Below, in pieces: positions 1,866-36,752 of a DNA stretch of 43,576 bases. The notes beneath the pieces were generated by a model. It saw nothing but the letters and a program-made list of their open reading frames with translations. It did no database searches and had not been told where the DNA came from. This stretch comes from a virus. Location: positions 1-43,576 of IMG/VR virus record IMGVR_UViG_3300045988_004347. The stretch is one strand, 5' to 3'. Made by a program: the position numbers and the translations under genes. The number at the start of each line of letters is the position of its first letter. Position 1 is the stretch's first letter.

Positions 1866-2683
1866 TTATTCTTTGTGTACGCGCATACAGATGATGCCCG
1901 AGCCACCAGAGCCGGGGTAAGACACGTAATCCCCCGACACGACTTGCGCTGACCCGCTTCCGCCTCCGCCTCCCCCGGTATTGTCCTGGGCAGAAGTCTG
2001 CTGCTTTGCTCCACCACCTTCGCCACCGGACGCATAGGTTGTAGTTGCCGAACTCGCACCGCCAGCTCCGCCACCGGCATAAAGTTTCCCGGTGATTTCG
2101 CCAAACTCACGGGTCGTGGTGCCCTGCCCAGTTCCACCGACCTTTGAATTGATGGTAAGCGCGTCATTTCCGTCACTGGCTCCGTCGCCAGGGTTCACAC
2201 CCAAATTCGTACTTTTTGAACCGCCTACGCCTCCGCCAGAGCCTCCGTTGCCGCCGTTTATTGGAACAGACGCAGATTTTCCGCCCTCTGCCGTATAGCC
2301 AAAAGCAACTGTATTACCTCCAGCAGGGCCTACTTTTCCAAAGGCTGCTTTGCCAGCCAGAGCAATCCCACCTGCGCCAATTACAACGGAATACTCGACA
2401 TTTGCTTGAAGCAGCGCTTTTGTGATGGTCTTTGTAAAGCCGCCAGCTCCACCTCCGCCTCCAGCCCACGTCGAATTAAATCCGTTGCTGCTTCCATTTC
2501 CAGCACCTCCGCCTCCTACCAAAAAGGCGTCAATGTACGTGTCCTTCGTGACTTTCAGCACACCACTTGTCAGAAGCTCCACAACCCCGTCATCAAGGCG
2601 TTCGTTGTACGTTCCGGTGTACTCAAACTCTAACCGTTTAGCAGTACCCCCCCCGCTATTTGCGATTTACCGACAATAACCAT
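1866..2683 (-). CDS. Glycine-rich tail fibre-like protein, paralog 1, frame broken in a G8 tract
   Basis: ATG at 2683 (RBS AAGGAGG) gives MVIVGKSQIAGG, then stops after 17 codons. The -1 frame continues GGTAKRLEFEYTGTYNERLDDGVVELLTSG, colinear with the paralog 2 N-terminus. Confidence 0.7.
2647..2654. repeat. Homopolymer C8 (G8 on the coding strand) at the frame break
   Basis: Plus strand reads gtaCCCCCCCCgct. One extra G, or a -1 ribosomal slip, would restore a single ORF. Confidence 0.85.
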
Positions 2684-2685
2684 CG

Positions 2686-3180
2686 TTAAACTACCTCCTT
2701 TACTTCGTACACCGTCACCTGAATGTTCAGGTCAGCGGTGGGCTTTTCGCCCACAGCGTAGGCGGTGAATGTCCCGTTGTTGTTGGCGATATAGATAGCG
2801 TTGGTGCCGTCGTCCAGCATCTGCTGTATCGCCGTTGCGTCTGCCTGAATGTCCGCCTGACTGGTGGCCGTTCCGCCTGTGATGGTCACACCCTGGGTGT
2901 AGGGGCTTGCGCTCCCTGTCCAGCTTGCCGCCGCCAGCGTCAGCGATAGCTTCTTGTCCGTTGCCTTGCCCGCCACGGCGTTGATGGCCTGAGAGGGCGT
3001 AGCCGTTGCCGGGTCAAGCCCAAGAGTTTCCGCCACCTCGTCCGTCAGCAGCGTGGACTTGTTCAGCGGTGTGCCCTCCGTGGTGGGGTTGTCCTGCCGG
3101 GTCATGTCGTACACGTTGTCCTGCCCGGAAACAGGCGTGAGCTTGACGCGGCCAGGATAAAGGGAAATTCTGTCCTGCAT
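2686..3180 (-). CDS. Tail fibre / host-specificity-associated protein
   Basis: 164 aa. The N-terminus RISLYPGRVKLTPVSGQDNVYDMTRQDNPTTEGTPLNKSTLL is the conserved opening of many Firmicute phage fibre proteins. An RBS follows the terminator. Confidence 0.6.
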   Translation of the reverse strand: MQDRISLYPGRVKLTPVSGQDNVYDMTRQDNPTTEGTPLNKSTLLTDEVAETLGLDPATATPSQAINAVAGKATDKKLSLTLAAASWTGSASPYTQGVTITGGTATSQADIQADATAIQQMLDDGTNAIYIANNNGTFTAYAVGEKPTADLNIQVTVYEVKEVV

Positions 3181-3192
3181 ATCTGCTCCTTT

Positions 3193-3233
3193 CCAAAAAA
3201 GATGGAGCCGACTACGTTCCCATAGTCGGCTCC
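3193..3233 (-). terminator. Intrinsic terminator inside the tail operon
   Basis: Perfect 11-bp stem GGAGCCGACTA/TAGTCGGCTCC with an 8-nt loop, then ATCTTTTTTGG on the minus strand. Confidence 0.7.
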
Positions 3234-3276
3234 TATTGCCCTTTCCCGTGCCCCGATTGGCCGGGAGTAACGTTTA

Positions 3277-3963
3277 TTATTTGATTTCGTTGGAGTACAA
3301 GTCTCCCGAGTAAAACCACGACTTGGCTATGTTCTGCACAAGCTGGTCTACCAGTATGAGGATACTTTCAATATCGTTGGCCTTTCGATAGTCCAGCGGC
3401 ATTGTCGGCACCTCCGGGGCATCGGCTGGCACAGGCAGCGCACTGCGTATTTCTGCGATGTCCGCGAGGTACTGGTCAATATCAGCCTGCGTGGGGATGT
3501 CCGTTTCCGTCCACCCTTGCTTTGCCGTCACCGTCACGCTGTAGCCGTTTGCTTCCAATTCCTCCGCCACATACAGCACAGCGCCAGCCACGCGGTTCAG
3601 GTCGGTGTAGTTGTACGACCCCTTGTTGTCACTCAGGAGAAGCACGTCCGCTGGGGTGCCGCGCCCAGCTTCTATTCGACTGAGCGCGGCTATTACGCCA
3701 TCCACGTCTGCTTGCGTCCTGTCCGTGATGAGGGACAGCATACCGTAGTTAAGGGTAAACTGGTAACTGGCGCTTGTGCCCGCCGCGTTGATAGCCGTCA
3801 AAGATACGGCGTACTTTTCATCCGAAGCACGGTCTACCGTGGCTTTCCACGCTTCGCCGTCCAGCGTCCACACGTAATCCTTGCCGTTGACCGAGCCGGA
3901 CACGTAGACGATGGCGGCGGGGAGCGATACGCGAATATCTCTGCTCAAGCTATCACCTCTCAC
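3277..3963 (-). CDS. Tail/baseplate-associated protein
   Basis: 228 aa with a GTG start overlapping the upstream stop. It has the conserved LITDRTQADVD...YNYTDLNRV...ANDIE pattern seen in fibre-associated proteins and ends WFYSGDLYSNEIK. Confidence 0.6.
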   Translation of the reverse strand: MRGDSLSRDIRVSLPAAIVYVSGSVNGKDYVWTLDGEAWKATVDRASDEKYAVSLTAINAAGTSASYQFTLNYGMLSLITDRTQADVDGVIAALSRIEAGRGTPADVLLLSDNKGSYNYTDLNRVAGAVLYVAEELEANGYSVTVTAKQGWTETDIPTQADIDQYLADIAEIRSALPVPADAPEVPTMPLDYRKANDIESILILVDQLVQNIAKSWFYSGDLYSNEIK

Positions 3964-4862
3964 TCAATGGTAACACTAATGACCATAGTTTTACCGGTGT
4001 CGACCGGGTTAGGCGTAATGGTTGCTGCTTTGATCTTCGGCACAGACGTGTCCAGCGTGACTGCACGGGTGACGGAGCTTTCCTTCCCTGCCGCGTCTTT
4101 TGCCTTGACGATAATGGTGTTGCTGCCCTCTTTCAGCGTAACCACCTTGGAGAAGGTGCCGCCGGTGCCCACAGGTACTGTCCCCTGATCCGTTCCGTTC
4201 AGGGAGATGGTAATGACCACAGGAGAGGACGTTGCATCGTTGGTAGTACCGGCCACAGTGACAGAAGAAGCCGCCGTAATAAGGCCGTCCGCAGGAGATG
4301 TTACGTTCAGCGTCGGAGGAACAGTATCCACGGTGTAGGTTGTGGACTTTTCCGTAGCCGCGTTGCCGTCGTGGTCTTTGCAGTTGATGGTCACGGTGTG
4401 GCTGCCGTCGCTCAGTGCCGCAGACGGCGTGTAGGTCACGCTGTAGCCATTGGTAATAGCCGTGTGCGTGATGTTCGCCGCCGCTACAGCCGTGCCGTCC
4501 TGCTTGACTACCAAGGTGCTGATGTCTACGCCGGAACCGCCGGTTTCATCCGTGATGTTGAATACCACCGGCTGTTTGCTGTTCGCCACATACGCGCCAG
4601 CCGTGGGAGACACGATGGTGATAACAGGTGCTACAGTCTCCTTTACCACCAGCTTCAGGCCGTCTACGGTAGATGCGTCCGCGCTGCCCTTTGTGCCCGC
4701 TTCGTTTGTTGCTTCGACGGATACGTTGTAGTAGCCGCCTGCCAGATTGTACGATGTTTTCCCCGGAGCGGTAATAGTCGCTTCCCATTTGCCGCTTGCG
4801 GAGTTCAGCGTCAGGTCGTATGTCTGGCCGTTGATCGTCGCTTTTACTGTCTTGATTGCCAT
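3960..4862 (-). CDS. Ig-like-repeat tail decoration / adhesin-like protein
   Basis: 300 aa, T/V/S-rich, with repeated beta-sandwich-like units (VAPVITIVSPTAG..., VPPTLNVTSPADG..., TSVPKIKAATITPNP). Confidence 0.6.
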   Translation of the reverse strand: MAIKTVKATINGQTYDLTLNSASGKWEATITAPGKTSYNLAGGYYNVSVEATNEAGTKGSADASTVDGLKLVVKETVAPVITIVSPTAGAYVANSKQPVVFNITDETGGSGVDISTLVVKQDGTAVAAANITHTAITNGYSVTYTPSAALSDGSHTVTINCKDHDGNAATEKSTTYTVDTVPPTLNVTSPADGLITAASSVTVAGTTNDATSSPVVITISLNGTDQGTVPVGTGGTFSKVVTLKEGSNTIIVKAKDAAGKESSVTRAVTLDTSVPKIKAATITPNPVDTGKTMVISVTIE

Positions 4863-5102
4863 TTATACCTCCCCGGCGTAAATATCGCCGCAAAAGAAAT
4901 GATATGCTTGTGGTACACGCGGGTACGGCGTATGGGGGCTTTCGCCCGCATATAGATCGCCGCTGTAGTAGTAGCTGGGGTACACGATGACGGTTTCCTC
5001 TATTACCGTTACCTGTAGCTTTACCTTGCCGTTGATGGTCGCCGGGTTCGGCAGCAGTACAGCCGCCGTTATCTTCGGCACCTGTGCTGTATATTCCGCC
5101 AT
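4863..5102 (-). CDS. Small tail protein with two copies of the aromatic SGDLYAGE motif
   Basis: 79 aa containing YYYSGDLYAGE and the C-terminal FFCGDIYAGEV. Confidence 0.55.
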   Translation of the reverse strand: MAEYTAQVPKITAAVLLPNPATINGKVKLQVTVIEETVIVYPSYYYSGDLYAGESPHTPYPRVPQAYHFFCGDIYAGEV

Positions 5103-5105
5103 CGG

Positions 5106-6617
5106 TTACACCTCCCCGGAAAACAGATCGTTGCTGTAATAGAAGTACGGACTGATGATCCACGCGCCTGTGACTTCCGCGTTGTACACCACCGTGTTGG
5201 ACAGCTTTATCTCCATCTTGTGAAGATTGCCTGTGGTCAGCAGGCCCCACGGCGTGTAAATGCTCACGCAGTCGCCCAGCTTCTCGCCACCGTATACCAC
5301 GGTCGCCGTGTTCGTGTCACGCAGCGAATAATACTTGTACAGCCGGTCCGCCACCGCCTGTCCAATCTCATCAGATACAAGAGTTGCCGCCGTGACTTCC
5401 TTTACATTCTCCCGGTCGGATGCGGTCACGTTAGGGTTGATGGCACTGTGCACCGTCCGGGTGTCTTTGTACTTAATTCCATTGATGGTCACGTTACCGT
5501 TGCTGGCTTCTACATAGCTATGCGCTGTCACATTTACCTTTGTGACCACCGCGCCGGTTGCAACGGAAGAACCGACGAACGTCCGCCCGCGTGGGATAAG
5601 AATAGGCTTTGTGGGCTGGTTAAACACCCGCAGTTTGTTCCCGCCGTCTGTTGCCAGACAGACGCCCCATGCAAATATGACTTGCTGAATGGCGCTGCGG
5701 TTGGTGCCCTTGACAAGTACGCCTTTCAGTGTTGTGTCCTCCACATCGCTTGCATACTCCACCTCAAAGGGCTTTGCAAGCGTTTCTAAGAGCGTTTTCG
5801 CACTCACTCCATCAAGGTATGCACCTCCGCTGAACGGCGTGTATTCAAGCACTCCAAGCGCGTCCTGGCACTCTATCACATACACGTTTGCGGACGTGCG
5901 TGACGAGTTGTTAATGTAGTATGTCCCCAGATGCCGGTTGTCGTTCCACACCTCCACCGGCTGTTTCAGCTGGAACAGATAGTCCACGTCTTTCAGGCTG
6001 TCCAGCGTCCAGTTTAGCGTGGACACCGGCAGCTCTACGGCGGCTTCGTTCGCCTGGTTTACGATGGATGCGTTGCGTATTTCGTTCATCCCGAATTTAC
6101 GCACCACGCCCAGCACGATCTCATTGACCCGCGCCCGCCGATGGGGAACTACGGTCTTTTTCAGCGTGACTTCCACCTTGTCAAAGCTCTCTACCCTGCA
6201 ATCGCAGAAGTACACCGCGTTGTTAGGCTGGAACGACTGCGCCCGCCGCAGCACCGCACCCTGATACCACGAGATTTCTACCTCGCTGCAATACTCTCCT
6301 GTGTCCTCGTCAAAGGTCAGTTGGATGCCCATGCTGGAATACTGCTGTGTAAACGTCATGGTGATTTTGGGCGGGTTGGTAAACTCTCCGCTGTCCCCGG
6401 AAACCTCCGTTGACCAAAAGCCTACCTTGTCCTCCTCGTACACGCCATCAAATGTGCCGTCCAGCACCCAGCGGCTCCGTTCCAGCGTGATAAGCTTCCC
6501 TGGCACCGCGCCGTGCGGGATTTGGGTGAGGTCTCCTGTGCCGCCGGTGGCGACCACAGTTGCGTCATCCGCCGCACCGGGGGCTATGTCCTTGTACAGA
6601 ATAGTCGTTTTCGACAT
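5106..6617 (-). CDS. Tail-associated / baseplate hub-like protein
   Basis: 503 aa, in the position expected two genes after the tape measure. It ends YFYYSNDLFSGEV. Confidence 0.6.
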   Translation of the reverse strand: MSKTTILYKDIAPGAADDATVVATGGTGDLTQIPHGAVPGKLITLERSRWVLDGTFDGVYEEDKVGFWSTEVSGDSGEFTNPPKITMTFTQQYSSMGIQLTFDEDTGEYCSEVEISWYQGAVLRRAQSFQPNNAVYFCDCRVESFDKVEVTLKKTVVPHRRARVNEIVLGVVRKFGMNEIRNASIVNQANEAAVELPVSTLNWTLDSLKDVDYLFQLKQPVEVWNDNRHLGTYYINNSSRTSANVYVIECQDALGVLEYTPFSGGAYLDGVSAKTLLETLAKPFEVEYASDVEDTTLKGVLVKGTNRSAIQQVIFAWGVCLATDGGNKLRVFNQPTKPILIPRGRTFVGSSVATGAVVTKVNVTAHSYVEASNGNVTINGIKYKDTRTVHSAINPNVTASDRENVKEVTAATLVSDEIGQAVADRLYKYYSLRDTNTATVVYGGEKLGDCVSIYTPWGLLTTGNLHKMEIKLSNTVVYNAEVTGAWIISPYFYYSNDLFSGEV

Positions 6618-6627
6618 AGGCCACCTC

Positions 6628-7023
6628 TCAGGGGCGGAGCTGCGCGTCCATCGGGACGAAGTTCACCTCGATCTCGCCCCAATAGTTCACGCCCCCATCG
6701 CCCTTCTCCAAGTCCTGAGACGCGCTGGTGTAATACGCTTCATAAGCAATGGTGGTCTGGCCGTCTGCCGCTTCCAGCATAACGGAGTCATCCACGCTGT
6801 GTTTGTACAGGTAGTCCCAGAAATCGTCCAGTCCCTTGTAGTTGTCGCCGCGCCGAAAAACCGTCAGCTTGTGGCCAAGGTATGTCCCGATGATGTCACG
6901 CACCATGCGGCCCGTCATTACGCGCCCTGCGTTTTCGCCGTCCAGCACGTTAAAGTTTCGGTTGTACTTTGAAATGGCCACGTCAGCGTCAAAGGAAATG
7001 CCGTTCAGTTTGATGTAGTTCAT
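6628..7023 (-). CDS. Distal-tail-like protein
   Basis: 131 aa immediately after the tape measure, with an ATGA-type overlap. The assignment rests on position only. Confidence 0.45.
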   Translation of the reverse strand: MNYIKLNGISFDADVAISKYNRNFNVLDGENAGRVMTGRMVRDIIGTYLGHKLTVFRRGDNYKGLDDFWDYLYKHSVDDSVMLEAADGQTTIAYEAYYTSASQDLEKGDGGVNYWGEIEVNFVPMDAQLRP

Positions 7024-9410
7024 CCCTGCACCTCCGACAGATTTACGCCGATGCGCGTACCCTCCGCCTTGTTCAGCCGGTACACGACCTTGCCCAGCAC
7101 GTCCTTATCCAGCACCAACACGGCTTCATTGCTGCCGCCATACCCGCTTTCAGCAAGTGCCTGTTTGAACGCCTGCACCATCGTAGCCAGAGGTGTCTCA
7201 ATGTTCGTCCCGGACTTCTGATCGCCCAGCACCGCCATAAACTCCCGGTTCGGAGGAATAACTGCGCCGGTAGCAAGTTTTGGAATAGGCAGCTTCGCAA
7301 CATTTACGCGTGACACGCTGCCATAATGCTTACCTGTCAGATCCGACAAACTATTTGCTGCGGCAACAAGCCTATTTAACCCATCAATGACGTTGTTGAT
7401 GCCGCGCTGGAACGACTCAATAATGTAATTCCACTGGATTACAAAGTTTCGGTTTGTCAGGCTCCAGTGTGCCAGCCACGCCTTGTTAAACTCCGCGCTG
7501 AATTTAGAAAACCCTGTCATGAAGTTTTCTTCCCATGCCAGAAATTCTGCGTCAATGTTATCAAGTACGAGTTGGAATTGCTCCAGCACAAGCCCCTGAT
7601 TTTCATTGATACCGTTTGCAAGGCCCTGCATCATGTAGTCGCCCATCTGCGTCGTTTCCGTCGATGGGGAATGAATACCCAGCACATCTTTTACTTTGCC
7701 GATTACATTGTGTCCCCATTCCGCAATCTTTTCTTTTGCTTTCAGTAGCCCACCGATCACGGTATTACTAAACCACGCTTTGATGTCTTCCCAAACGCCC
7801 TTGAGTTTGTCAAGCAGGAAATTCCAGTTTGGCGCAATTGCCGCAGCAAGGCCAACAGCGCCAACTGCAATCAGGCCAAGACCAAGAGGCACACCGGCTC
7901 CGGTAAACAAAAGGACAACACCGAGAACAAGCAGTGCTGCGCTGATCTTACCGATAACCTCCCCAAGCGGCCCTTGCAGCGCTTCTACAATACTTTCCCA
8001 ATTTGGAACAATGGCCGCCGCAAGTCCTGCTGCTCCCACAAGAATAAGTCCAAGACCAAGCGCAATCCCCGCGCCAGTAAACAAAAGGATCGCGCCAAGT
8101 GCCAACAATGCCGTGCTTGCAACTGCAACGATTTGTCCAACTTCTCCTTGCAGCGCTTCCTTTATCACGCCCCAATTTGCGGCTATAGTTGCCGCAAGAC
8201 CAACCGCTCCGAGTACAAGAAGGCCAAGGCCAAGAGGAACATTTACGCCTCCGAACACAAATATCGCGCCTAATGCCAGCAAAGCAACGCTTACAATTGC
8301 AACGATACCGGCAAGTTCACCCTGTAGCGCTTCCTTTATTGCGCCCCAGTTTTCGCTTACTGCGCTGTAAATAGTCAGCGCGCCAATTGCCATAAGTGCG
8401 ATGCCCAGCGGTATATTTATTCCGGAGAATGTAAGTATAGCGCCCAAAGCCAGCAAGCCAGCGCCCACAAACAGGGATGTGACCGCGCTGATTTGGTCTT
8501 TCATGGAAGACACAAAGTTTGGGGCACCCGCGCCGCCTCCGCCGCTGGAAGTATCCACGGAAAGTTTGTTGATTTCATCAAAGCTTGCCAAAGACTTACT
8601 TGCTTTTTTTGCCGCCCCGCCAACGCCGCTAAGTGCTTTTTGCTGGTTATATAGATTTTCAGCAGCTCTGCCCGCTTCATCCGCCGTTGTCCCAAAAATC
8701 ATAGCCACCAGTTTGGACAGAGCATTTACTACCTGTGTAATAACGTTGACAAGAACAATAAACGCGGGGATAAGCACATTCAGTATTGGTTGCGCAAGAG
8801 TGCGTAAAGCGCCTTTTAGTCTGCCAACCGCCGCCATAGCTTCATCGTTGGTTTGTATGGCCTCCCACATGTAGTCTTTCAAAGACCGCAGCGCCCGCGT
8901 GATAAGTGAAAACACCAGCACGCGACGAGCAAGCGTTTTTACTCTATCAGAAAACTTTTTCAGCCTCTTGTCTGCTTCTTCCGCAGCGGCAGAAAACCCG
9001 GTAGTTTTTTCTTTTGCTGCTGCTATTTGCGTTGCCAATTGCCCGGCTTTTTCTTTTTCACGGTCTATTGCACGCTCAGCTTCCGCAATTCTGTCGTTTT
9101 GCGTGTCCAATTTTTTGTTTACGTCTTTCCATTCTCCGCGAAGACTTTTAACAAGCTCAGTTTGCCTTTCGATGTGAAAGCTTGTAAAAAATTCATCCCC
9201 GCTTTTCATGTGCGCAAGCTTTTCTTGTTCTTTTTCCAAACTGTCCGCCAAATCTGCGGCTCTGTTTGCAAGAAAATCCCGGTTGCTTTTTTTGCTATTA
9301 AGCTTTTCCTGTAATGCGTCGATTTTTTTGGTCAACGCATTAAGTTCTTTCTGTGCCTGTTTATCGTCGATGTCGGCCCTGATAATAACGGAGCCGTCTG
9401 CGTTTGCCAT
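7020..9410 (-). CDS. Tape measure protein
   Basis: About 796 aa with a coiled-coil N-terminus and repeated TM-rich units. ATG at 9410 is 5 nt after AGGTGG; the ORF extends to a GTG at 9419. Confidence 0.85.
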   Translation of the reverse strand: MANADGSVIIRADIDDKQAQKELNALTKKIDALQEKLNSKKSNRDFLANRAADLADSLEKEQEKLAHMKSGDEFFTSFHIERQTELVKSLRGEWKDVNKKLDTQNDRIAEAERAIDREKEKAGQLATQIAAAKEKTTGFSAAAEEADKRLKKFSDRVKTLARRVLVFSLITRALRSLKDYMWEAIQTNDEAMAAVGRLKGALRTLAQPILNVLIPAFIVLVNVITQVVNALSKLVAMIFGTTADEAGRAAENLYNQQKALSGVGGAAKKASKSLASFDEINKLSVDTSSGGGGAGAPNFVSSMKDQISAVTSLFVGAGLLALGAILTFSGINIPLGIALMAIGALTIYSAVSENWGAIKEALQGELAGIVAIVSVALLALGAIFVFGGVNVPLGLGLLVLGAVGLAATIAANWGVIKEALQGEVGQIVAVASTALLALGAILLFTGAGIALGLGLILVGAAGLAAAIVPNWESIVEALQGPLGEVIGKISAALLVLGVVLLFTGAGVPLGLGLIAVGAVGLAAAIAPNWNFLLDKLKGVWEDIKAWFSNTVIGGLLKAKEKIAEWGHNVIGKVKDVLGIHSPSTETTQMGDYMMQGLANGINENQGLVLEQFQLVLDNIDAEFLAWEENFMTGFSKFSAEFNKAWLAHWSLTNRNFVIQWNYIIESFQRGINNVIDGLNRLVAAANSLSDLTGKHYGSVSRVNVAKLPIPKLATGAVIPPNREFMAVLGDQKSGTNIETPLATMVQAFKQALAESGYGGSNEAVLVLDKDVLGKVVYRLNKAEGTRIGVNLSEVQG
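7800..8507. repeat. Four tandem ~174-bp (58-aa) repeats inside the tape measure gene
   Basis: NWGAIKEALQG, NWGVIKEALQG, NWESIVEALQG and NWNFLLDKLKG recur every 58 aa. Each unit carries G/A/L-rich hydrophobic helices. Confidence 0.75.
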
Positions 9411-9437
9411 TTGCACCACCTACTTTCAAATTGCGAA

Positions 9438-9466
9438 TGGACATTTCGCATAAAATGTGTTATGGT
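9438..9466 (+). promoter_or_regulatory. Candidate promoter of the TM-Mrr gene
   Basis: TGGACA, a 17-nt spacer, then TGT-TATGGT (extended -10). It overlaps the GCGAA...TTCGC inverted repeat. The RBS AAAGGAGGG follows. Confidence 0.35.
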
Positions 9467-9487
9467 TGCGGTAAAGGAGGGACAGCT

Positions 9488-10579
9488 ATGGAAAAGATTA
9501 AACGCATAGCAATATTTATCGGTACATGGGTTGCCGCTACCTGTGTAGTTCTTATCTTGGGAGTAATTCTTGCTCCTACTTCGCCAGAGGGGGATAAAAT
9601 TCTTGGTGGCGGATTTACTGCAGCCGTTTTTATTATCCCTGTCATTATTGCTATTCTTGTTGTCAACAAAGATAAGATAAAAGCAAAGCTGCCTGAAAAG
9701 AAACCAACCGCTCTTAACCTCTCTGATACAGCAGAGCGAACAAAAGAATTTGTACCGCCCGCTTCTGCCGCAAAACAACAGCAACTCGCGGACAAGTTGG
9801 TTTCTGACATGCGCACTACTCTTTCTTTTTGCGAAGATGCCCCTTCGCTCAATTTATTTGTACATTGGTACGACCAAGCAATTGCCGATTTGGTCAAAAT
9901 GGTTTCTTTGGTTAAAGCCAATTTTAACTTTGACCCAACGTATAGGCTTAAAACTTTACGCGACGAATACCAACTCCATTTGTGTGATGCCATAGTTCGA
10001 ATCAAAGAGGAAACTTTGTCTGAAATAGACGGAAAGTATAAAAACAGCCGCGAATTTCAAGAAAAAGCCCTTACTGAATTTTGCGATGATATTGGGTTTG
10101 TTCGTTCGCGTTTTTCTCCCGGCACCGCCGATGTGGCAGATAAAGCTATTTCTGATATAGAAAAGCATCTTGGCATTAACCAGCACCCGGAAGAAACTTC
10201 TGCCCATTTATCGTTGTGGGACAACATTGATTTTATGGACGGTCATCGCTTTGAATACTGGTGTGCGGATGTCCTCCGCAAAATCGGATTTTGTAACGTA
10301 GAGGTAACACGCGGCAGCGGCGACCAGGGCGTTGACGTTCTTGCGGAAAAAGATGGGGTCAAATATGCCATCCAGTGCAAGTGCTATACTTCCGATTTGG
10401 GTAACAAGCCGGTACAAGAAGTCAACACTGGAAAGACCATTTACCGCTGTCAAGTTGGCGTTGTTATGACAAACCGTTACTTTACGCAAGGGGCAAAAGA
10501 CGCTGCTGAAGCAACCGGCATTTTGCTGTGGGATCGTGACGTCGTGCAAAAGATGGCAAAACTGGCGAATATGGCTTGA
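9488..10579 (+). CDS. Membrane-anchored protein with a C-terminal Mrr-type (PD-(D/E)XK) restriction endonuclease domain
   Basis: Start is MEKIKRIAIF after AAAGGAGGG. Two N-terminal TM helices are present. The C-terminus FEYWCADVLRKIGFCNVEVTRGSGDQGVDVLAEKDGVKYAIQCKCY...VVMTNRYFTQGAKDAA fits the Mrr_cat pattern. Two hand-counted 60-nt lines gave about 42% GC. Confidence 0.75.
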   Translation: MEKIKRIAIFIGTWVAATCVVLILGVILAPTSPEGDKILGGGFTAAVFIIPVIIAILVVNKDKIKAKLPEKKPTALNLSDTAERTKEFVPPASAAKQQQLADKLVSDMRTTLSFCEDAPSLNLFVHWYDQAIADLVKMVSLVKANFNFDPTYRLKTLRDEYQLHLCDAIVRIKEETLSEIDGKYKNSREFQEKALTEFCDDIGFVRSRFSPGTADVADKAISDIEKHLGINQHPEETSAHLSLWDNIDFMDGHRFEYWCADVLRKIGFCNVEVTRGSGDQGVDVLAEKDGVKYAIQCKCYTSDLGNKPVQEVNTGKTIYRCQVGVVMTNRYFTQGAKDAAEATGILLWDRDVVQKMAKLANMA

Positions 10580-10584
10580 CCTTT

Positions 10585-10612
10585 ACCGCCCTCTGTAGAG
10601 GGCGGTTTTTAT
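10585..10612 (+). terminator. Intrinsic terminator of the TM-Mrr gene
   Basis: 9-bp stem ACCGCCCTC/GAGGGCGGT with loop TGTA, then TTTTTATAT. It overlaps the stop of the convergent Gp15-like gene. Confidence 0.8.
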
Positions 10613-11157
10613 ATCCATCTACTGATGACCGCCTCGTCTTGCTCCGTATATTGCTTCTGGAAATCTATCAAATGCCGGTTTTTTCTATAAAACTCCTGCT
10701 CTGATTTATCCAGCTTTTCACCCTTTGACTTCTTTCGCCGTATATTGACCACTTGTGCAAACATACAATCGCCAATTTCCGTGTACGCCGTGTTCCACGT
10801 CCACCAATGAAGATAGCGCATCGCGCGGACTTCTTCCCCCAGCACTTTGTTTACAGGAGCTACAATCAATGGGAAATCCTGCTGCCAATCCATAAGCTTT
10901 ACGGTTCGCTTTTCTTCTTTGTAGGGCTCCCCGCAATTTATAAACCAAATGCATTTCTGGATAGCTTCCTCATAGTCTCGCTCCGGCATGTTATCAAAGT
11001 CTGGGTAAAAAATATCCAACATCGCTTCTGCCTTGTCGGCTTCCGTAAAATCTTTGTCAGAAATGGCTTCTATGATGGTCAGAATATCTCGGTAATCGCT
11101 CCGTATTTCATATTCCGTTCCGTTGACTTCCACGGACACCGGCAAATCATATCTCAT
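10609..11157 (-). CDS. Gp15-family phage protein in the tail module
   Basis: 182 aa. MRYDLPVSVEVNGTEYEIRSDYRDILTIIEA... is typical of the Gp15 family found between the chaperone and the tape measure in A118-like modules. Confidence 0.65.
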   Translation of the reverse strand: MRYDLPVSVEVNGTEYEIRSDYRDILTIIEAISDKDFTEADKAEAMLDIFYPDFDNMPERDYEEAIQKCIWFINCGEPYKEEKRTVKLMDWQQDFPLIVAPVNKVLGEEVRAMRYLHWWTWNTAYTEIGDCMFAQVVNIRRKKSKGEKLDKSEQEFYRKNRHLIDFQKQYTEQDEAVISRWI

Positions 11158-11588
11158 TTGTGGTACTTCTTTGTGTACTTACTGATGCGCGGATTGGTAG
11201 CTTTCTGTTCGCGGGAGAAAGTAGTGTCTACTTCGTCCATTACGGCAAGCATCAGGTTAGCCCACACAGGCAGACCGTCCGCCAGCGCGTATAGGTTCAT
11301 TTCGCCAAACAAAGCGCTGCAAATGTCAACGTGGAATACTTCATTGATGATCTCGCGCATTTCGTCATCCATCTTGCGTGCTGTATCAAAAATGTCGCGT
11401 TTATTGGCCGTCTTTTCTACTTCCGCTTTGTAAGTTTCCTGCTTTTTGTCCAGCGTATCAAAAGCGTTAAAAAGCTTTTCCACAAACCCGCTGTCCGTGG
11501 GGTTAAAAGAAAACTCACACGTCTTGCCATCGGTTGTTTCAAATACTTTTTTTACGACGCCAGAATTGATGATAATAGTGTCTGCCAT
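11154..11588 (-). CDS. Tail assembly chaperone
   Basis: 144 aa, acidic, directly after the major tail gene. ATGA overlap with the next gene. Confidence 0.6.
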   Translation of the reverse strand: MADTIIINSGVVKKVFETTDGKTCEFSFNPTDSGFVEKLFNAFDTLDKKQETYKAEVEKTANKRDIFDTARKMDDEMREIINEVFHVDICSALFGEMNLYALADGLPVWANLMLAVMDEVDTTFSREQKATNPRISKYTKKYHK

Positions 11589-11637
11589 TTTTATCCTCCA
11601 TGTGAGGGCGGGGAATGTCCCCCGCCCTCTCTGTTAT

Positions 11638-12159
11638 TTAGGCCGCAGTAAACTCAATAGCGCCGCTGCTACCTTTCTTCACAGTGCCCACAGTGCGGGT
11701 GCCGCCGTAGGTGATTTCGCTGGTGATATTCAGGGTGCCGCCGCCCTCGCCGCCGATGCCGGTGATGGCAATAGCGCAAGCGTCGTAGCGCTCCGCAAAC
11801 ATCGCCTCGCCGCTGGTGGCGTAGAAGTGACCGATCATCATGTCCTGATTTGCCAGCGCCTGGGCATCTTGGTCTTTGACGGCCAGGTTCCACATCTTCA
11901 CCGCCGCAGCGTCACCCGCGTCCAAAGGAATAGGGTCAAAGGTCTGCGTGATGGTGGGCTTTTTCATAGTCGTAAAGGTGTGGCCCAAAATGTCCTGCTT
12001 GGTGTCGGTGCTCCAATCCATTTCCTCGCTGCTGTCCTCGACGCGCTTACCGATAGCGCTCCACACAGGGGCGGAAGCGGTGCCGGTGTTCAGGTACGCA
12101 ATGAGCAGTTCGCGGTCAATGGTCTGGCCCACCGTGGTGTTGAATTCCAAATCTGCCAT
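11638..12159 (-). CDS. Major tail protein
   Basis: 173 aa. Position and the pattern LIAYLNTGTASAPVWSAIGKRVEDSSEEMDW... are typical of siphovirus major tail proteins. Confidence 0.75.
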   Translation of the reverse strand: MADLEFNTTVGQTIDRELLIAYLNTGTASAPVWSAIGKRVEDSSEEMDWSTDTKQDILGHTFTTMKKPTITQTFDPIPLDAGDAAAVKMWNLAVKDQDAQALANQDMMIGHFYATSGEAMFAERYDACAIAITGIGGEGGGTLNITSEITYGGTRTVGTVKKGSSGAIEFTAA

Positions 12160-12605
12160 TATACATTCACCTCGTAATTCAGTTTCATAAGGATTTGGTG
12201 ATCTTCGTCCCCGTTTTCATACATGGCAAACAGGGAAGATCGCGTGGTCGGCTCCATGCTGATAACGCGCTTGTCATCTCCGATGTAGGGCTTCTGACCA
12301 TTTGCCCAATCTCCGATAGCGTTCAACAGTTCGTCAGCCTTGAGCCGTTTGTCGTTGCTGTTCCCCGGCTTCACTCGGTAGATTATCTTGAACTGATACT
12401 CCGCCACATAGCCGCCGGTGATATACTTCCGCACGATGTAAGCCGCTTGGATGGTCGACATCGCCATAGCGGAAGTGTCGGCGGGAAGAAACTCAAAGCG
12501 GATCAGGTCGACTGGCAGCTCCGGGTATGTGTTCAGCCACACAAGCAGCTTGCGCGATACCTGATCTTCTTCCGCCGCCGGCACGGCCTTTTTAATCTTT
12601 TCCAA
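12159..12605 (-). CDS. Tail completion / terminator-like protein
   Basis: 148 aa, in the position immediately upstream of the major tail gene. Confidence 0.55.
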   Translation of the reverse strand: MEKIKKAVPAAEEDQVSRKLLVWLNTYPELPVDLIRFEFLPADTSAMAMSTIQAAYIVRKYITGGYVAEYQFKIIYRVKPGNSNDKRLKADELLNAIGDWANGQKPYIGDDKRVISMEPTTRSSLFAMYENGDEDHQILMKLNYEVNV

Positions 12606-19972: not shown

Positions 19973-20078
19973 ACACGCCCTCCTTTCTGCGTTGGCGTTT
20001 AATAAACTTCTCCATGTCCCGCTTCAAATACGGGCTGCTGGTTTTGGCTATGATTGCCCGTGCTTCTTCAATCGTCAT
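19923..20078 (-). CDS. Small 51-aa protein preceding terS
   Basis: ATG at 20078 overlaps the MTase stop. Product is MTIEEARAIIAKTSSPYLKRDMEKFIKRQRRKEG. The 50-nt overlap with terS lowers confidence. Confidence 0.4.
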   Translation of the reverse strand: MTIEEARAIIAKTSSPYLKRDMEKFIKRQRRKEGVYGKNRTSSERDKREAV

Positions 20079-21261
20079 GCAAACGCACCGCCTTCTTCCC
20101 GGTGAACTTCTCCCACCGGTCAATGATTACATCGGCATACTTTGGATCATACTCCATGCAGAAAGCGTGTCTGCCATTCTGCTCCGCTGCCATAATCGTC
20201 GTGCCGGACCCAGCAAACAGGTCAAGAACATTCTCTCCCGGCTTACTTGAGCACTGCATCTGGTAATCAAACAGCTTAATCGGTTTCATGGTCGGATGCT
20301 CCGCAGATTTGACAGGCTTATCAAAATTCAACACGGTTGTCTGCCTGCGGTTCTTGAAGAAATAATGCTTCTTCCCTTCCGTCCAGCCGTACAGGCAAGG
20401 TTCGTGTGCTTCTTCTTCAATCTCGCTCTCACCATACAGGCAAGGCTCATGTTTCCACTGGAAATCCTGTCTCCCCATCACAAGGGAGTTTTTCACCCAG
20501 ATCAGGCACTGCCGGACACGCAGCATCGCATCTCTGCACGCGCCTCGGAAGTTATACCCCTCGCTGTCTGCGTGCCAGATGTAGAACGGAGCACCTGGTT
20601 TCATAACCATCGCCGCATTGGAAAACGCATCCGTTAGAAACCGTCTAAATGCCGTATCCTCCATATTGTCGTTCTTAATCTTCCCGGCGGTGCCCTGATA
20701 GTCCACATTGTACGGAGGGTCTGTGAGCAGCAAATCCATTTGTGCCCCCCCCACGAGCTTCTGTACGTCTGCCAAAGACGTGCTGTCTCCGCACATAAGG
20801 CGATGGTCTCCAAGCTGGTACACATCGCCAAGTTTGCTCTTCGGCTCTGCCGGTAAAACAGGATCGTAGTTGTCCTCTACAACTGACGTGTCGAGCTCAT
20901 CACGCAGCCCCCAATCAAAGTCAAACGCCGACAGGTCAAGACCAGGCAGTTCATCAGCCAGCAGGTCAAAGTCCCAGTCGCTCTCGTTGCTCTTGTTATC
21001 CACCAGCCGCAGGGCGTTCACCTGCTCCGGTGTCAGATCGTCCACGCAGACGCAAGGCACTTCTTCCATGCCCAGCTTCTTTGCCGCCATAGCGCGGCAG
21101 TGGCCGATAACAATAACACCCTCTTGGTCAATCACAATCGGCTGCACGAACCCGTACTGTTTAATGCTTTCGGCCACATTGTTGATTTGCCGTCTGTCGT
21201 GCTTCTTGGCATTTGCAGCATACGGCATAATATCCGCCAGCCGCTTGTTTTTTACTTCCAT
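20068..21261 (-). CDS. ParB-like nuclease domain fused to an N6/N4 DNA methyltransferase
   Basis: Start is MEVKNKRLADI at 21261 (AAAGGAGG RBS). The ParB-N-like segment is ESIKQYGFVQPIVID...GHCRAMAAKKLG. The MTase motifs are LLLTDPPYNV and DLFAGSGTT. Confidence 0.85.
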   Translation of the reverse strand: MEVKNKRLADIMPYAANAKKHDRRQINNVAESIKQYGFVQPIVIDQEGVIVIGHCRAMAAKKLGMEEVPCVCVDDLTPEQVNALRLVDNKSNESDWDFDLLADELPGLDLSAFDFDWGLRDELDTSVVEDNYDPVLPAEPKSKLGDVYQLGDHRLMCGDSTSLADVQKLVGGAQMDLLLTDPPYNVDYQGTAGKIKNDNMEDTAFRRFLTDAFSNAAMVMKPGAPFYIWHADSEGYNFRGACRDAMLRVRQCLIWVKNSLVMGRQDFQWKHEPCLYGESEIEEEAHEPCLYGWTEGKKHYFFKNRRQTTVLNFDKPVKSAEHPTMKPIKLFDYQMQCSSKPGENVLDLFAGSGTTIMAAEQNGRHAFCMEYDPKYADVIIDRWEKFTGKKAVRLHDD

Positions 21262-21654
21262 GTGGCCTCCTTTGCCTGACGCACCGGCCTCCCACCACTG
21301 GCCTTTGTCATTGGCACGTCTGTACCCGGCTTTCGCCTCGCCTGAAGTTATTTTTACACAATCGGTCGGGTGCCACCACGTATCCATACTATCCTACACA
21401 GCGGCTTTGTCCTAAGACAACCGCCACCACACCACATCCACGCCTCGGAGTTCTCTCAAGCGCGGTGGTACCCAGACCAACCACGGAACTTTTCAGCCCT
21501 GCGCCGGTACGTCGGTCGCATCCGTTCATCTTTACAAAGCCGGTGCCAGCCAATACATAAATTACTTCGTCCTGCCGCTTTCGTACAGCGCACAGGAAAG
21601 ACCACTTTCGCAGGCTTACGCTCCGTGCGGCTGCGAGGCAAGAGGTCACGCCTA

Positions 21655-26840: not shown

Positions 26841-27914
26841 TCAATACCTCACTCCTATGTAGTCCAGCACCCGCGCATAACCAAGGCCGTCTTTCGTGGG
26901 CTTCCACAGCCCGTCTGTGTCAAACGCCCCGCCGCCGATGCAGAACTGGTAGTGCTTCGGGTGCGTCAGTTTCATGCGCTCAAATCGGTTGATGCCTTTT
27001 TCGAGATGAGCGCCGAACCCACAGAACATACACCCTGTGCGTTGGCAGCCCGTGCAGTGCAGCTTGCAGTCGATCAGCGTCGCGCCGTAGTCGTTCTCGC
27101 CGTCGCTGGCCACGATGTCGCCGTACACGCTGGCGTAAAAGAGATGGTTGTCTATGATAAGCCGCAGCACATCCTGCTCCGTCCAGAAACTCATGGGCTT
27201 AGATAAAGGGCGCTTTCCTTCAAAGGCGTTGCAGCCAGTTTCGCGCCATTTTTGCATCCGCAAAAGACCTTCCTCCGCCATTGTTGCCGTCGTGGGTTTG
27301 ACATCCGCTCGGTGCTCATAGCTCCTTGCTGGGGACTTTTTCATAATTTCACAACACCTGTCTGATATGAGGAATGGAGCCGAAAGCAAATACTTCCACT
27401 TTTCACAGTTGTACATACTCTTTTCCCCATCGGCGCGTAAAACTTCCCCACGCAATAGCTTCATACTTCGGCTATCTGGTGAACGCCGCGCGGTTTCTAT
27501 CCGGTGCGCTACGTCTTTACCGATAATGCTGTACCCGTACTTCGTCACCACCTGCCGAATGTTCATCTTCGGGCGCAGGCGGTGAAGGTTTACGGTCACG
27601 CGGGGAAATTCCCTCCGCAGCCACGCGGCGTACTCATTCACGAACTTCTGAATTTCAGGGTATTCCAGCCCTGTGTTCACGAACACCAAATTCAGCTCCC
27701 ACGGCGGCGTCCTGAAACTCGACAGATACCGAGCCGCCAGATACGCCAGTACCGTGCTGTCCTTTCCGCCGGAGAAGCTGACGTAGCACTGTCCGCCCCA
27801 TGCGGTGTACCACTCGTCCAGCTTTTCGTAGGTCAGTATCTCCTTGTCCTGCACGTCCAGCGCCATCAGTTTCCTTGCCGCCTCATTCGTCAGCGGCTGG
27901 TTTGTGCGCTCCAC
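26841..27914 (-). CDS. PAPS-reductase / DndC-like PP-loop ATP pyrophosphatase family protein
   Basis: 357 aa with the PP-loop YVSFSGGKDSTVLAYLA and a C-terminal Cys cluster CKLHCTGCQRTGCMFCGFG. Confidence 0.8.
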   Translation of the reverse strand: MERTNQPLTNEAARKLMALDVQDKEILTYEKLDEWYTAWGGQCYVSFSGGKDSTVLAYLAARYLSSFRTPPWELNLVFVNTGLEYPEIQKFVNEYAAWLRREFPRVTVNLHRLRPKMNIRQVVTKYGYSIIGKDVAHRIETARRSPDSRSMKLLRGEVLRADGEKSMYNCEKWKYLLSAPFLISDRCCEIMKKSPARSYEHRADVKPTTATMAEEGLLRMQKWRETGCNAFEGKRPLSKPMSFWTEQDVLRLIIDNHLFYASVYGDIVASDGENDYGATLIDCKLHCTGCQRTGCMFCGFGAHLEKGINRFERMKLTHPKHYQFCIGGGAFDTDGLWKPTKDGLGYARVLDYIGVRY

Positions 27915-34708: not shown

Positions 34709-34845
34709 AATATCACCTCCAAAGTTAGATTATTTTCTTGACAAATTAGAGTATTTGTGATAGTTTGGTTTTGCTACAAACTTTCCTATCACGCCAGCCC
34801 TATTTATCGGGGTGGTGCAGGTTTTTGTTGCCTGTCCACGGTCTA

Positions 34846-34874
34846 ATTATAGTCGAACTTCAACCAAAAATCAA
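34846..34874 (-). promoter_or_regulatory. Early (cro-side) promoter
   Basis: On the minus strand: TTGATT, a 17-nt spacer, then TATAAT. Confidence 0.6.
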
Positions 34875-34878
34875 CTGT

Positions 34879-34918
34879 AATTCGACCATCAATTTAACCA
34901 AAATTCGACCGTTAATTT
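34879..34918. promoter_or_regulatory. Two direct repeats AATTCGACCnTnAATTT, candidate operators
   Basis: Copies at 34879-34895 and 34902-34918, just upstream of the CI-like ATG. A further inverted repeat GTGATAG...CTATCAC lies at 34757-34792. Confidence 0.4.
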
Positions 34919-34919
34919 T

Positions 34920-35282
34920 ATGGGATTTACCGAAAACTTTAATTACTGCATGGAGCAGCGCAATTATTCTGCGTACAGATTTGCAAAAATTCTTGGCGTC
35001 AATATTCAAAGCCCTGTTAATTGGAAAACCGGCGCTTCAATCCCCCATTACGGGACGCGCCAGAAGATTGCTGAGCATTTCGGCATCACTCTTGCGGAGC
35101 TGGACGGTGACGAACTGCCCGTCCTGCCGCCAGAAGGCGCAAAAAAAGCCCCCGCCACAGAGGGCGAGGGCTATGATGACAAAATAACTCGGTTGTATAC
35201 CCAACTTCCTAAATTATCAGATCGCCAGCGCGAAATGATATTAGGGATTGTAGATGAAATGCTAAAAAATGGGGAAGCTTAA
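34920..35282 (+). CDS. CI-like XRE-family repressor
   Basis: 120 aa. The HTH is YSAYRFAKILGVNIQSPVNWKTG. The gene faces the cro-like gene. No Shine-Dalgarno sequence is visible. Confidence 0.75.
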   Translation: MGFTENFNYCMEQRNYSAYRFAKILGVNIQSPVNWKTGASIPHYGTRQKIAEHFGITLAELDGDELPVLPPEGAKKAPATEGEGYDDKITRLYTQLPKLSDRQREMILGIVDEMLKNGEA

Positions 35283-35490: not shown

Positions 35491-35665
35491 ACAGCGTCGA
35501 TGCGGCCAGAACAAGAAGTAACTTTTCTATGCGTTCAAGCCGGTTTTCGTTTTCAATACTTTGAAACACGAGCGCCATTTGTATTTCCTTGTGATCTGCA
35601 TCGCTCATGTTGCGCACGTTTGCGTTATCTGCCAAGTAATCAGCGCTCGTTTTTTGACAACTCAT
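35456..35665 (-). CDS. Small protein with a C-terminal TM helix
   Basis: 69 aa. Its start overlaps the upstream 54-aa ORF, and it converges on 35269..35490 with a 35-nt overlap. Confidence 0.45.
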   Translation of the reverse strand: MSCQKTSADYLADNANVRNMSDADHKEIQMALVFQSIENENRLERIEKLLLVLAASTLFNAVAILLMQL

Positions 35666-35804
35666 ATTCCACCACCTTAATCAACTCGTCCAACTGGTTA
35701 TCGGTAAGAAGCAGTATTTTTTTCTTGAGCAGCCCCAACACGTCTTGTGTTGCAACTGCTGCCAAATCCATTTTATCACGCCCCGCTGTTTTGGTACAAT
35801 ACAT
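35640..35804 (-). CDS. Small 54-aa protein
   Basis: Below the track cut-off. AAGGGGAGAGAA precedes the ATG. Product is MYCTKTAGRDKMDLAAVATQDVLGLLKKKILLLTDNQLDELIKVVEYELSKNER. Confidence 0.4.
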   Translation of the reverse strand: MYCTKTAGRDKMDLAAVATQDVLGLLKKKILLLTDNQLDELIKVVEYELSKNER

Positions 35805-36140
35805 TTCTCTCCCCTTTCTTAATTTGACATATTATTTTCTCGGTGTACAACTAAATTTGTACACTTATAGTTACGCACAAGCTGTTTGTTGCCCACAAAT
35901 GGGCAACAAATTAAAAAATATTTCAGGGGGAAGTGTTTATATGTGGGCCTTTGTTAAATAGCCCCGCTGCTCCCGCAACGGACAGCGGGGCTATTCTCGC
36001 CGGTGGCCTCCCGGCTTTCCGGCTGCACGTTCACACTAACAAATCAGGGTTTGGCAGGGCAATACCAAATTCGGATAATTACCGTTTGCGGCAAACCAGA
36101 ATTGGAATTCTCCTGCCCGAAAAAGGAGTAAAAGGGGAAA

Positions 36141-36752
36141 ATGGTAAAAACATTACAGGATTTGTGCAAAGATGCAAAAGACCGACAGAATTTAACTATA
36201 CAAGATTTGTCCGACATGACGGACATTTCAGCATCAACCATAAGCAATTTTTTCTCCGCGTCATCAAAGGAGCCGAGCGTGTACAAAATGGGTTTAATTT
36301 GTGCCGCGCTTGGCGTTTCAATGGATGAATATTTCGGGATTGAAAAAGAAGTGACAACGGAAGATGAGTTAGCACAAGCCAACGAAAAGCTGGCGCACCA
36401 AAAGCAGCTGCATGATGCCAATGTGCAGATAGCCCATCTTGAGGGCGGCATGGAGCAGATGGCAAAAACCATTAACTACCACCGCAAGAAATCGCGGGAC
36501 ACAAAATTTGCTATTTATGGCCTTACGTTTTTGTGCGCCATATTTATGGCTGTTATCGTGGGATATATCTTTTTTGACTACCGTATCCCCCACCAGGGGC
36601 TTATTCAGGGCGGAGAGGCCAGTATATTCGCATGGATTGTCTTTTTGCTGCTTGCGGTCGGTATTGGCTTTTTTGCCGCTATTTTGATGATGTATTTTCG
36701 CTATGCAAAAAAGTATACATTGTCGCCAGATAAGGGAGGAGATAAACAATGA
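36141..36752 (+). CDS. XRE-type HTH protein with a coiled coil and two C-terminal TM helices
   Basis: 203 aa with the HTH LTIQDLSDMTDISASTISNFFS. The TM helices are FAIYGLTFLCAIFMAVIVGYIFF and IFAWIVFLLLAVGIGFFAAILMM. The stop overlaps the int ATG (ATGA). Confidence 0.7.
   Translation: MVKTLQDLCKDAKDRQNLTIQDLSDMTDISASTISNFFSASSKEPSVYKMGLICAALGVSMDEYFGIEKEVTTEDELAQANEKLAHQKQLHDANVQIAHLEGGMEQMAKTINYHRKKSRDTKFAIYGLTFLCAIFMAVIVGYIFFDYRIPHQGLIQGGEASIFAWIVFLLLAVGIGFFAAILMMYFRYAKKYTLSPDKGGDKQ

Follow-up and report, generated by a model that had tools for sequence, protein, structure and literature searches.

A predicted membrane-anchored Mrr_cat nuclease encoded by an antisense moron between the Gp15 and tape measure genes of a gut Clostridia siphophage

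The nuclease cassette and its protein

The window analysed here, the 43,576 nucleotides (nt) of IMG/VR record IMGVR_UViG_3300045988_004347, comprises the whole genome of a temperate siphophage of gut Clostridia. Between its Phage_Gp15-family gene and the gene for its tape measure protein (TMP) lies, in antisense orientation, a gene for a predicted membrane-anchored nuclease of 363 amino acids (aa). The genes identified from 14 to ~34367 are all on the minus strand, and the long plus-strand open reading frames (ORFs) in that region overlap minus-strand genes and have antisense-type composition. Apart from the nuclease gene, no convincing plus-strand gene is found in these ~34 kb. An earlier note, made by inspection of the letters, had described it as the only plus-strand gene in about 30 kb and had placed it between Gp15-like and tape measure genes, which agrees with the strands of the identified genes and with the PF06854 and PHROG matches on the two flanks. 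The locus contains the following features.

7020-9419, minus strand: TMP gene, which borders the slot on its downstream side (PHROG tail length tape measure protein, E=1e-38)
9438-9466, plus strand: promoter-like site, with -35 TGGACA at 9438-9443, a 17-nt spacer and extended -10 TGT-TATGGT at 9458-9466 (consensus scan)
9474-9480, plus strand: ribosome-binding site (RBS) AAGGAGG, 7 nt 5' of ATG 9488 (direct sequence reading)
9488-10579, stop codon included, plus strand: coding sequence of the membrane-anchored Mrr_cat nuclease, 363 aa, ATG start (ORF call)
9506-9667, plus strand: transmembrane (TM) hairpin, with TM1 at about aa 7-29, a short acidic loop and TM2 at about aa 40-60 (Kyte-Doolittle hydropathy; AlphaFold2 (AF2) helices 2-28 and 41-67)
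9668-9766, plus strand: basic, disordered juxtamembrane linker, aa 61-93 (predicted local distance difference test score, pLDDT, <50 at aa 68-85; low sequence conservation)
9767-10177, plus strand: six-helix middle domain, aa 94-230 (alignment of 39 homologues; AF2)
10214-10564, plus strand: Mrr_cat PD-(D/E)XK nuclease domain, aa 243-359 (PF04471, aa 248-356, E=1.7e-27)
10585-10611, plus strand: intrinsic terminator, with a 9-bp GC-rich stem at 10585-10606, a 4-nt loop and T5 (hairpin scan, folding)
10609-11157, minus strand: Phage_Gp15-family gene at the place of the tail assembly chaperone, bordering the slot on its upstream side (PF06854, E=2.4e-26; phrog_706)

The maximal plus-strand ORF spans 9404-10579 and opens with a TTG. 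The earlier note had rightly recognised a real plus-strand gene here but had begun it at 9404, and the true start is likely ATG 9488, behind the strong RBS that the note had also reported. Its proposed promoter was recovered by the consensus scan as a match that is not significant on its own; both hexamers are invariant across 17 alleles of the gene, and the spacer between them is variable. The unrelated cargo genes that occupy the same position in other phages mostly have extended -10 motifs about 30 nt 5' of the RBS, several of them TGTTATAnT-like. The strong terminator of the note is borne out by a folding energy of -17.8 kcal/mol (z=-4.4) and the T5 tract, and its T-run overlaps the Gp15 stop codon. 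Since the hairpin is followed by a U-tract in the plus-strand transcript only, the terminator should be one-way.

The gene is low in G+C content (GC), at 44.1% against 53.3% for the window, where the note had estimated about 42%. GC at third codon positions (GC3) is 41%, and the capsid and tail-tube genes have a GC of 58% and a GC3 of 70-75%. The low GC noticed earlier is thus real relative to capsid genes but is not confined to the cassette: the adjoining Gp15 and chaperone genes are also low (44-45% GC, GC3 52-54%). Since these tail-chaperone genes share its composition, composition alone does not set the cassette apart, and it was rejected as proof of horizontal origin.

The AF2 model of the whole protein, built on 39 homologues, has a pLDDT of 86.6 and comprises a TM hairpin, a disordered basic linker (aa 68-93 in the model), a six-helix domain (aa 94-228) and an alpha/beta nuclease domain (aa 243-359). 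Hydropathy, AF2 and Pfam concur with the architecture of two TM helices, a helical middle and a C-terminal Mrr_cat domain read from the translation at the outset. The charges flanking the TM segments are +2, -1 and +3, and both termini are predicted to be cytoplasmic (N-in/C-in).

The Pfam match to PF04471, which the note had proposed as a check, defines the nuclease domain clearly. Residues E256, D279, D283, Q296 and K298 are invariant in the 39 homologues, which are 38-90% identical, and the D..QxK of the nuclease aligns with the D..ExK of AF1548. The best PDB fold matches in Foldseek are MspJI (4f0p) and AspBHI (4oc8), with AF1548 and Hjc also found. Because the catalytic residues are invariant and the fold matches agree, the domain is very probably an active nuclease, to judge by its sequence and model, and not a dead domain of the NA-iREase1 type.

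The middle domain is highly conserved overall and includes the motifs WYD, EFQWHLCDAIVRxKE, KYKNSREFQ and RFSxGT..LAD. Modelled alone, it has a pLDDT of 95.6 and a predicted template modelling score (pTM) of 0.87. Searched in isolation, it matches no Pfam family at E<=10, a profile search of PDB sequences returns chance-level matches only, and Foldseek against PDB folds gives a best E=0.19 with no match, the 14-3-3, TPR and designed helical-repeat structures scoring at TM <=0.38. By these sequence and structure comparisons, the domain is undescribed, with no counterpart among Pfam families or PDB folds.

A profile of the middle domain finds 147 clusters only among 1.84 billion representatives. 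Most (122) carry Mrr_cat, five carry an HNH nuclease instead, and an FtsK_SpoIIIE ATPase, an FtsK_gamma domain and a tRNA_anti-like OB domain are found in one cluster each; FtsK_gamma is also present in some Mrr_cat members. The proteins in which the middle domain is fused to HNH, FtsK_SpoIIIE, FtsK_gamma or OB modules are P0166, P0171, P0176, P0203, P0220, P0129, P0145 and P0214. The exchange of one nuclease for another of unrelated fold suggests that the middle domain is an adaptor and that the cutting of DNA at the membrane is what selection favours. When the middle-domain alignment was used to scan viral and metagenome contigs, with a single narrow peptide pattern, essentially the window's own lineage alone was recovered.

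Exact or near-exact copies of the whole protein (P0001-P0008) are present in public data, and exact-sequence look-ups of P0004 and P0001 found no record. A megablast of window positions 6600-12200 against GenBank phages gave no match, and an NCBIfam search gave no meaningful match.

The Gp15/TMP slot and the lysogeny contexts

A moron, as defined by Juhala and Hendrix (quoted in PMC3594210), lies between genes that are adjacent in relatives, has its own promoter and terminator, differs in composition and is expressed from the repressed prophage. The slot was surveyed by scanning IMG/VR for Gp15 homologues, followed by tblastn and ORF analysis. In L193, L194 and L116, whose Gp15 is 59% identical, the Gp15 stop and the TMP start are ~50 nt apart with no insert, while the lineage of the window has a 1.2-kb insert at this junction. 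Genes adjacent in relatives are therefore separated here by the cassette, which at the level of sequence also brings its own promoter-like site and a hairpin with a U-tract. Judged by what can be read from sequence, the cassette is a moron, an autonomous promoter-gene-terminator unit set antisense at the Gp15/TMP junction, from which expression during lysogeny would be expected. The empty and alternatively filled slots of relatives bear out the self-contained antisense moron that had been suggested.

Seventeen near-identical phages have the nuclease gene in this slot. One near-identical phage (L095/L122; IMGVR_UViG_3300045988_010932) has an 866-bp out-of-frame deletion inside the gene, corresponding to window ~9518-10382, with 9 bp of microhomology, and is otherwise 98-100% identical; it offers a ready-made knockout allele. 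Across the Gp15-oriented loci (L118-L195), the slot, at window 9411-10608, holds at least seven unrelated antisense cargo types, the nuclease included, or eight with DUF4352. The other cargoes are listed below.

21 loci, antisense: 262-aa protein with a central TM pair
19 loci, antisense: 227-230-aa soluble protein with a weak SHOCT match
4 loci, antisense: bPH_1 protein (PF08000, E=4.5e-35)
3 loci, antisense: 233-aa lipoprotein
2 loci, antisense: 148-aa protein with a C-terminal TM segment
L135 and L195, antisense: small TM or Zn-ribbon ORFs
L007-L009: DUF4352 protein, in an unrelated small element

The representatives of these other cargoes tested with PADLOC gave no match. Directly 3' of the Gp15 stop, most cassettes of unrelated cargo (L137, L141, L149, L186, L135) have the same hairpin as the window at 10585-10606, AAAACCGCCCTC-N4-GAGGGCGG, which is absent from the 148-aa cassette (L158) and from the empty site. 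This hairpin may be a terminator common to these cassettes and, in addition, the anchor at which recombination exchanges them. Another phage, whose capsid protein is Phage_cap_E (L005/L006), also has nuclease homologues in its Gp15/TMP slot, and a seed search suggests the same placement in L011 and L044.

Outside tail modules, homologues of the nuclease are found beside the genes of lysogeny. A search for homologous proteins gave 2107 matches, many of them full-length at 40-55% identity, whose names, where given, are only 'hypothetical', 'restriction system protein' or 'Holliday junction resolvase'. All six of the other independent, Pfam-annotated prophage contexts outside tail modules have the full-length homologue directly after a repressor gene, co-directional with it and before the integrase gene.

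L001, L003/4, L197/8, L199/200, L201 and L202/3: repressor-integrase contexts; the repressor is HTH+S24 or HTH+ImmA M78 (HTH, helix-turn-helix)

The isolated temperate Roseburia phage Jekyll encodes a related Zn-ribbon + TM2 + Mrr_cat protein at the same repressor-integrase position. More broadly, the nuclease clade is present at no fewer than 573 loci in Clostridia genomes, nearly all with N-terminal TM segments and with varied architectures. The repressor-integrase interval of L197/L198 holds extra cargo that forms a small defence-like island: beside the TM-nuclease homologue, positions 2452-6853 encode an RNase_T exonuclease, an HSDR_N_2 protein, a Cu_amine_oxidN1-domain protein and a HicAB pair.

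The ratio of nonsynonymous to synonymous polymorphism (pN/pS) of the nuclease gene, over the 17 alleles of the window lineage, is 0.22, with 0.09 for the nuclease, 0.23 for the middle domain and 0.30 for the TM segments and linker. Structural genes of the same lineage have values of 0.03-0.12. This pattern indicates that the gene is maintained by selection and that its N-terminal parts evolve faster. Within the TMP gene, the N-terminal 150 codons have a raised pN/pS of 0.26.

The flanking genes belong to a long minus-strand array that includes genes for an endolysin, tail proteins, TMP, Phage_Gp15, a chaperone-like protein, tail tube, capsid, an SPP1-type portal, TerL, a ParB_N/N6_N4 methylase and the YqaJ and Sak recombination proteins. 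The true start of TMP is probably ATG 9410, which is preceded by an RBS, AGGTGG. No minus-strand promoter-like site was seen by the consensus scan in the interval from the cassette to the TMP start; late transcripts can therefore reach TMP only through the cassette, and the transcriptional interference between the moron and tail expression that the note had predicted is plausible. At least seven cargo types are found in this antisense arrangement, which is thus evidently tolerated.

Several other features of the phage were observed. At 7824-8470, the TMP gene has diverged internal repeats of 64-67% nucleotide identity at an offset of ~174 nt, which encode hydrophobic TM-like segments with NWGxIKEALQGE ends; Tandem Repeats Finder reported no repeat in the TMP gene despite their detection by BLAST. 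The lysogeny module, on the plus strand at 34.4-38.1 kb, is a second low-GC block (43-47%) with a composition like that of the moron. In it, an HTH repressor gene (36141-36752) overlaps a serine recombinase gene (36749-38071), and two plus-strand ORFs (34765-35187 and 35500-35961) are unannotated. A fusion of ParB_N with an N6_N4 DNA methyltransferase and a PAPS_reduct-domain protein are encoded at 20068-21387 and 26841-27914, both on the minus strand. Since these proteins are encoded, the phage DNA may be modified, which would be relevant if the Mrr-type nuclease were modification-dependent.

Known systems and candidate functions

A comparison of the protein with known systems shows familiar parts in an unfamiliar combination. 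SNIPE (PD-lambda-1; Saxton et al., Nature 2026), studied in E. coli, joins a TM anchor to DUF4041 and a GIY-YIG nuclease; it cuts lambda DNA during injection, associates with TMP and is toxic when untethered, and its nuclease is the most conserved part and its N-terminal parts the most variable (PMC13190303). The present protein is likewise the product of a single gene, with an N-terminal anchor (two TM helices are found in 7% of SNIPE homologues) and a C-terminal nuclease that is cytoplasmic by prediction. Both proteins place a middle domain between anchor and nuclease, which in SNIPE is required for function, and the gradient of conservation from nuclease to N terminus is the same. In contrast, the nuclease here is Mrr_cat PD-(D/E)XK rather than GIY-YIG, the middle domain has six helices and a net charge of -5 rather than the positive, DNA-binding surface of DUF4041, and the family resides in gut Clostridia prophages, whereas SNIPE was characterised in E. 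coli. With neither DUF4041 nor GIY-YIG, membership in SNIPE was rejected; as no SNIPE-defining domain is present, the relation is one of analogy.

The position of the cassette recalls HK97 gene 15, the first moron described, which lies between the tail assembly chaperone and tape measure genes (PMC3594210). HK97 gp15 is an inner-membrane protein, expressed by the prophage, that blocks entry of the superinfecting genome in a manner dependent on tail tube or TMP features (Cumby et al. 2012, via PMC3594210). The cassette shares with gene 15 its autonomy, the chaperone/TMP slot and a TM product, here a predicted one. Unlike gp15, which is small, single-TM and YebO-like with no enzymatic domain, the product here has 363 aa and a nuclease, and its phage is a Clostridia siphophage unrelated to the lambdoid coliphage HK97. 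A Pfam scan of the protein found no family beyond those of restriction endonuclease (REase) type, the gp15/YebO sequence not having been compared directly.

Other relations are confined to the nuclease domain. The protein shares its catalytic domain family with Mrr, MspJI and AspBHI and keeps the D...QxK motif intact, but differs from Mrr-type Type IV enzymes in being membrane-anchored and in having, by Pfam, no Mrr_N or SRA-like modified-DNA recognition domain. Such an assignment was rejected, as a TM hairpin and a novel helical domain make up the first 240 aa. In PADLOC, only the nuclease domain is matched, by ZorD (E=7.7e-20, aa 237-361), PDC-S02 (E=3e-11) and LmuA (E=2e-7), which like this protein have an Mrr_cat-type nuclease domain. 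Unlike ZorD of Zorya and LmuA of Lamassu, the protein has no helicase domain, and its cassette has no ZorABC or LmuB/C partner genes; membership in either was rejected for a single-gene cassette between tail genes that matches by its nuclease domain only. Membership in NA-iREase1 was rejected as well, the catalytic residues being kept and Mrr_cat scoring higher. PDC-S02, a candidate system, appears in the literature in survey mentions only, and a literature search on the nuclease protein family found no paper. The earlier suggestion that this is not a described system therefore holds.

The reading favoured here, which we put at an even chance, is a membrane-tethered nuclease expressed in the lysogen for superinfection exclusion or direct defence. 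The prophage would express the gene during lysogeny, and the TM hairpin would insert the product into the cytoplasmic membrane, leaving the flexible basic linker, the six-helix middle domain and the Mrr_cat nuclease on the cytoplasmic face. Tethering would hold the nuclease away from the chromosome. The middle domain would be an adaptor or sensor that licenses cleavage as foreign DNA, most likely that of a superinfecting phage, crosses the membrane. The outcome would be superinfection exclusion or direct defence of the lysogen, SNIPE-like but without a homologous domain. That the middle domain also occurs joined to HNH nucleases, an FtsK_SpoIIIE ATPase and FtsK_gamma speaks for the cutting or handling of DNA at the membrane as the property under selection. 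The anti-phage role proposed in the earlier note gains support as a hypothesis from the slot comparison, the repressor-integrase homologues and purifying selection, and direct exclusion is favoured over the abortive infection that it had also named.

Some observations weigh against this reading. The negative charge of the middle domain is opposite to that of the DNA-binding surface of DUF4041. The consensus scan saw 5 promoter-like sites where 3.4 are expected, so that a single match is within chance. The PADLOC scan (E<=1) gave no full-length match and no model beyond those for the nuclease domain. The HNH-bearing relative examined (L204) has a context that is not clearly that of a prophage. 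Finally, a limited seed search saw no prophage markers at many of 80 genome loci of this nuclease clade; it was too insensitive to classify the context of most loci and was not used for frequencies.

A bolder form of the reading is tentative, and we think it possible but distinctly less probable. A TM anchor, a middle adaptor and an interchangeable nuclease (Mrr_cat or HNH) would together form an independently arisen counterpart of SNIPE in Clostridia prophages. The middle domain would recognise the injection machinery of a superinfecting siphophage, either TMP or the host channel, and license the cutting of entering DNA, and the Gp15/TMP junction with its shared hairpin would be a dedicated exchange site for entry-blocking cargo.

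Abortive infection would use the same protein to another end: the membrane-held nuclease would be released or activated on infection, for instance by cleavage of the linker, and would degrade host and phage DNA until the cell dies. The architecture and the prophage placement fit this too, a disordered linker separates the anchor from the globular domains, and many homologues directly follow the gene of an ImmA-type M78 protease. Deprived of its TM segments, SNIPE cleaves the chromosome and is toxic (PMC13190303); a nuclease set free from the membrane would therefore kill the cell. The cassette, however, includes no sensor or partner gene, and ImmA genes are ordinary anti-repressor components that are absent beside the gene of the window. 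The sole characterised membrane-tethered nuclease, SNIPE, acts by direct defence, and abortive infection appears unlikely here.

Foreign DNA could also arrive by other routes, and the protein could be a barrier to conjugative elements, plasmids or transforming DNA, which would shield the prophage against competitors and against curing from the chromosome. This is quite unlikely. Conjugation and transformation deliver single-stranded DNA, whereas Mrr_cat-type enzymes are double-stranded DNA nucleases. The fusions of the middle domain to the FtsK_SpoIIIE translocase ATPase and to FtsK_gamma, modules typical of DNA translocation at membranes, would suit such a barrier, and arms races that set prophages against transformation have been documented (PMC12637031). 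Yet SNIPE does not block plasmid transformation (PMC13190303), and the placement of the gene is that of phage superinfection exclusion genes.

A role in the lytic cycle, either degradation of the host chromosome after induction or DNA processing in replication or packaging, is very unlikely. The gene runs against the late operon and brings a promoter-like site and a terminator of its own; related phages lack it or have other cargo instead, and one near-identical phage has it deleted; and elsewhere it shares the direction of the repressor in the lysogeny module rather than that of early or late lytic genes. Membrane tethering would also be odd for a replication or packaging nuclease, even if nucleases are common in phages and the PHROG matches of the nuclease domain bear no annotation beyond unknown function or RusA-like. 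Most improbable of all is a catalytically dead REase-fold domain that serves only in DNA binding or as a scaffold, with steric exclusion like that of classical superinfection exclusion (Sie) proteins: a secondary Pfam match to NA-iREase1 (PF22722, E=4.7e-11) points that way, but Mrr_cat scores 96 bits against 43, the E-D-QxK set that aligns with D..ExK of AF1548 is invariant, and relatives swap in HNH, another nuclease.

Implications for Clostridia prophages

Neither the architecture nor the middle domain has been described before, while a membrane-bound defence nuclease and a moron at the chaperone/TMP junction were already known. With the nuclease cassette, the original moron of HK97 gains a clear counterpart in Gram-positive bacteria. 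The slot that it occupies offers no fewer than seven unannotated proteins, most of them of membrane or surface type, as candidates for exclusion or defence in abundant human-gut temperate phages.

If the proposed role in superinfection exclusion or direct defence is true, spatially restricted nuclease defence evolved at least twice from unrelated parts, by a GIY-YIG route in Proteobacteria (SNIPE) and by an Mrr_cat/HNH route in Clostridia, and the principle would be general. The middle domain, with its 147 clusters, would then be a new adaptor domain, and its ligand could reveal how entering DNA is told from the chromosome.

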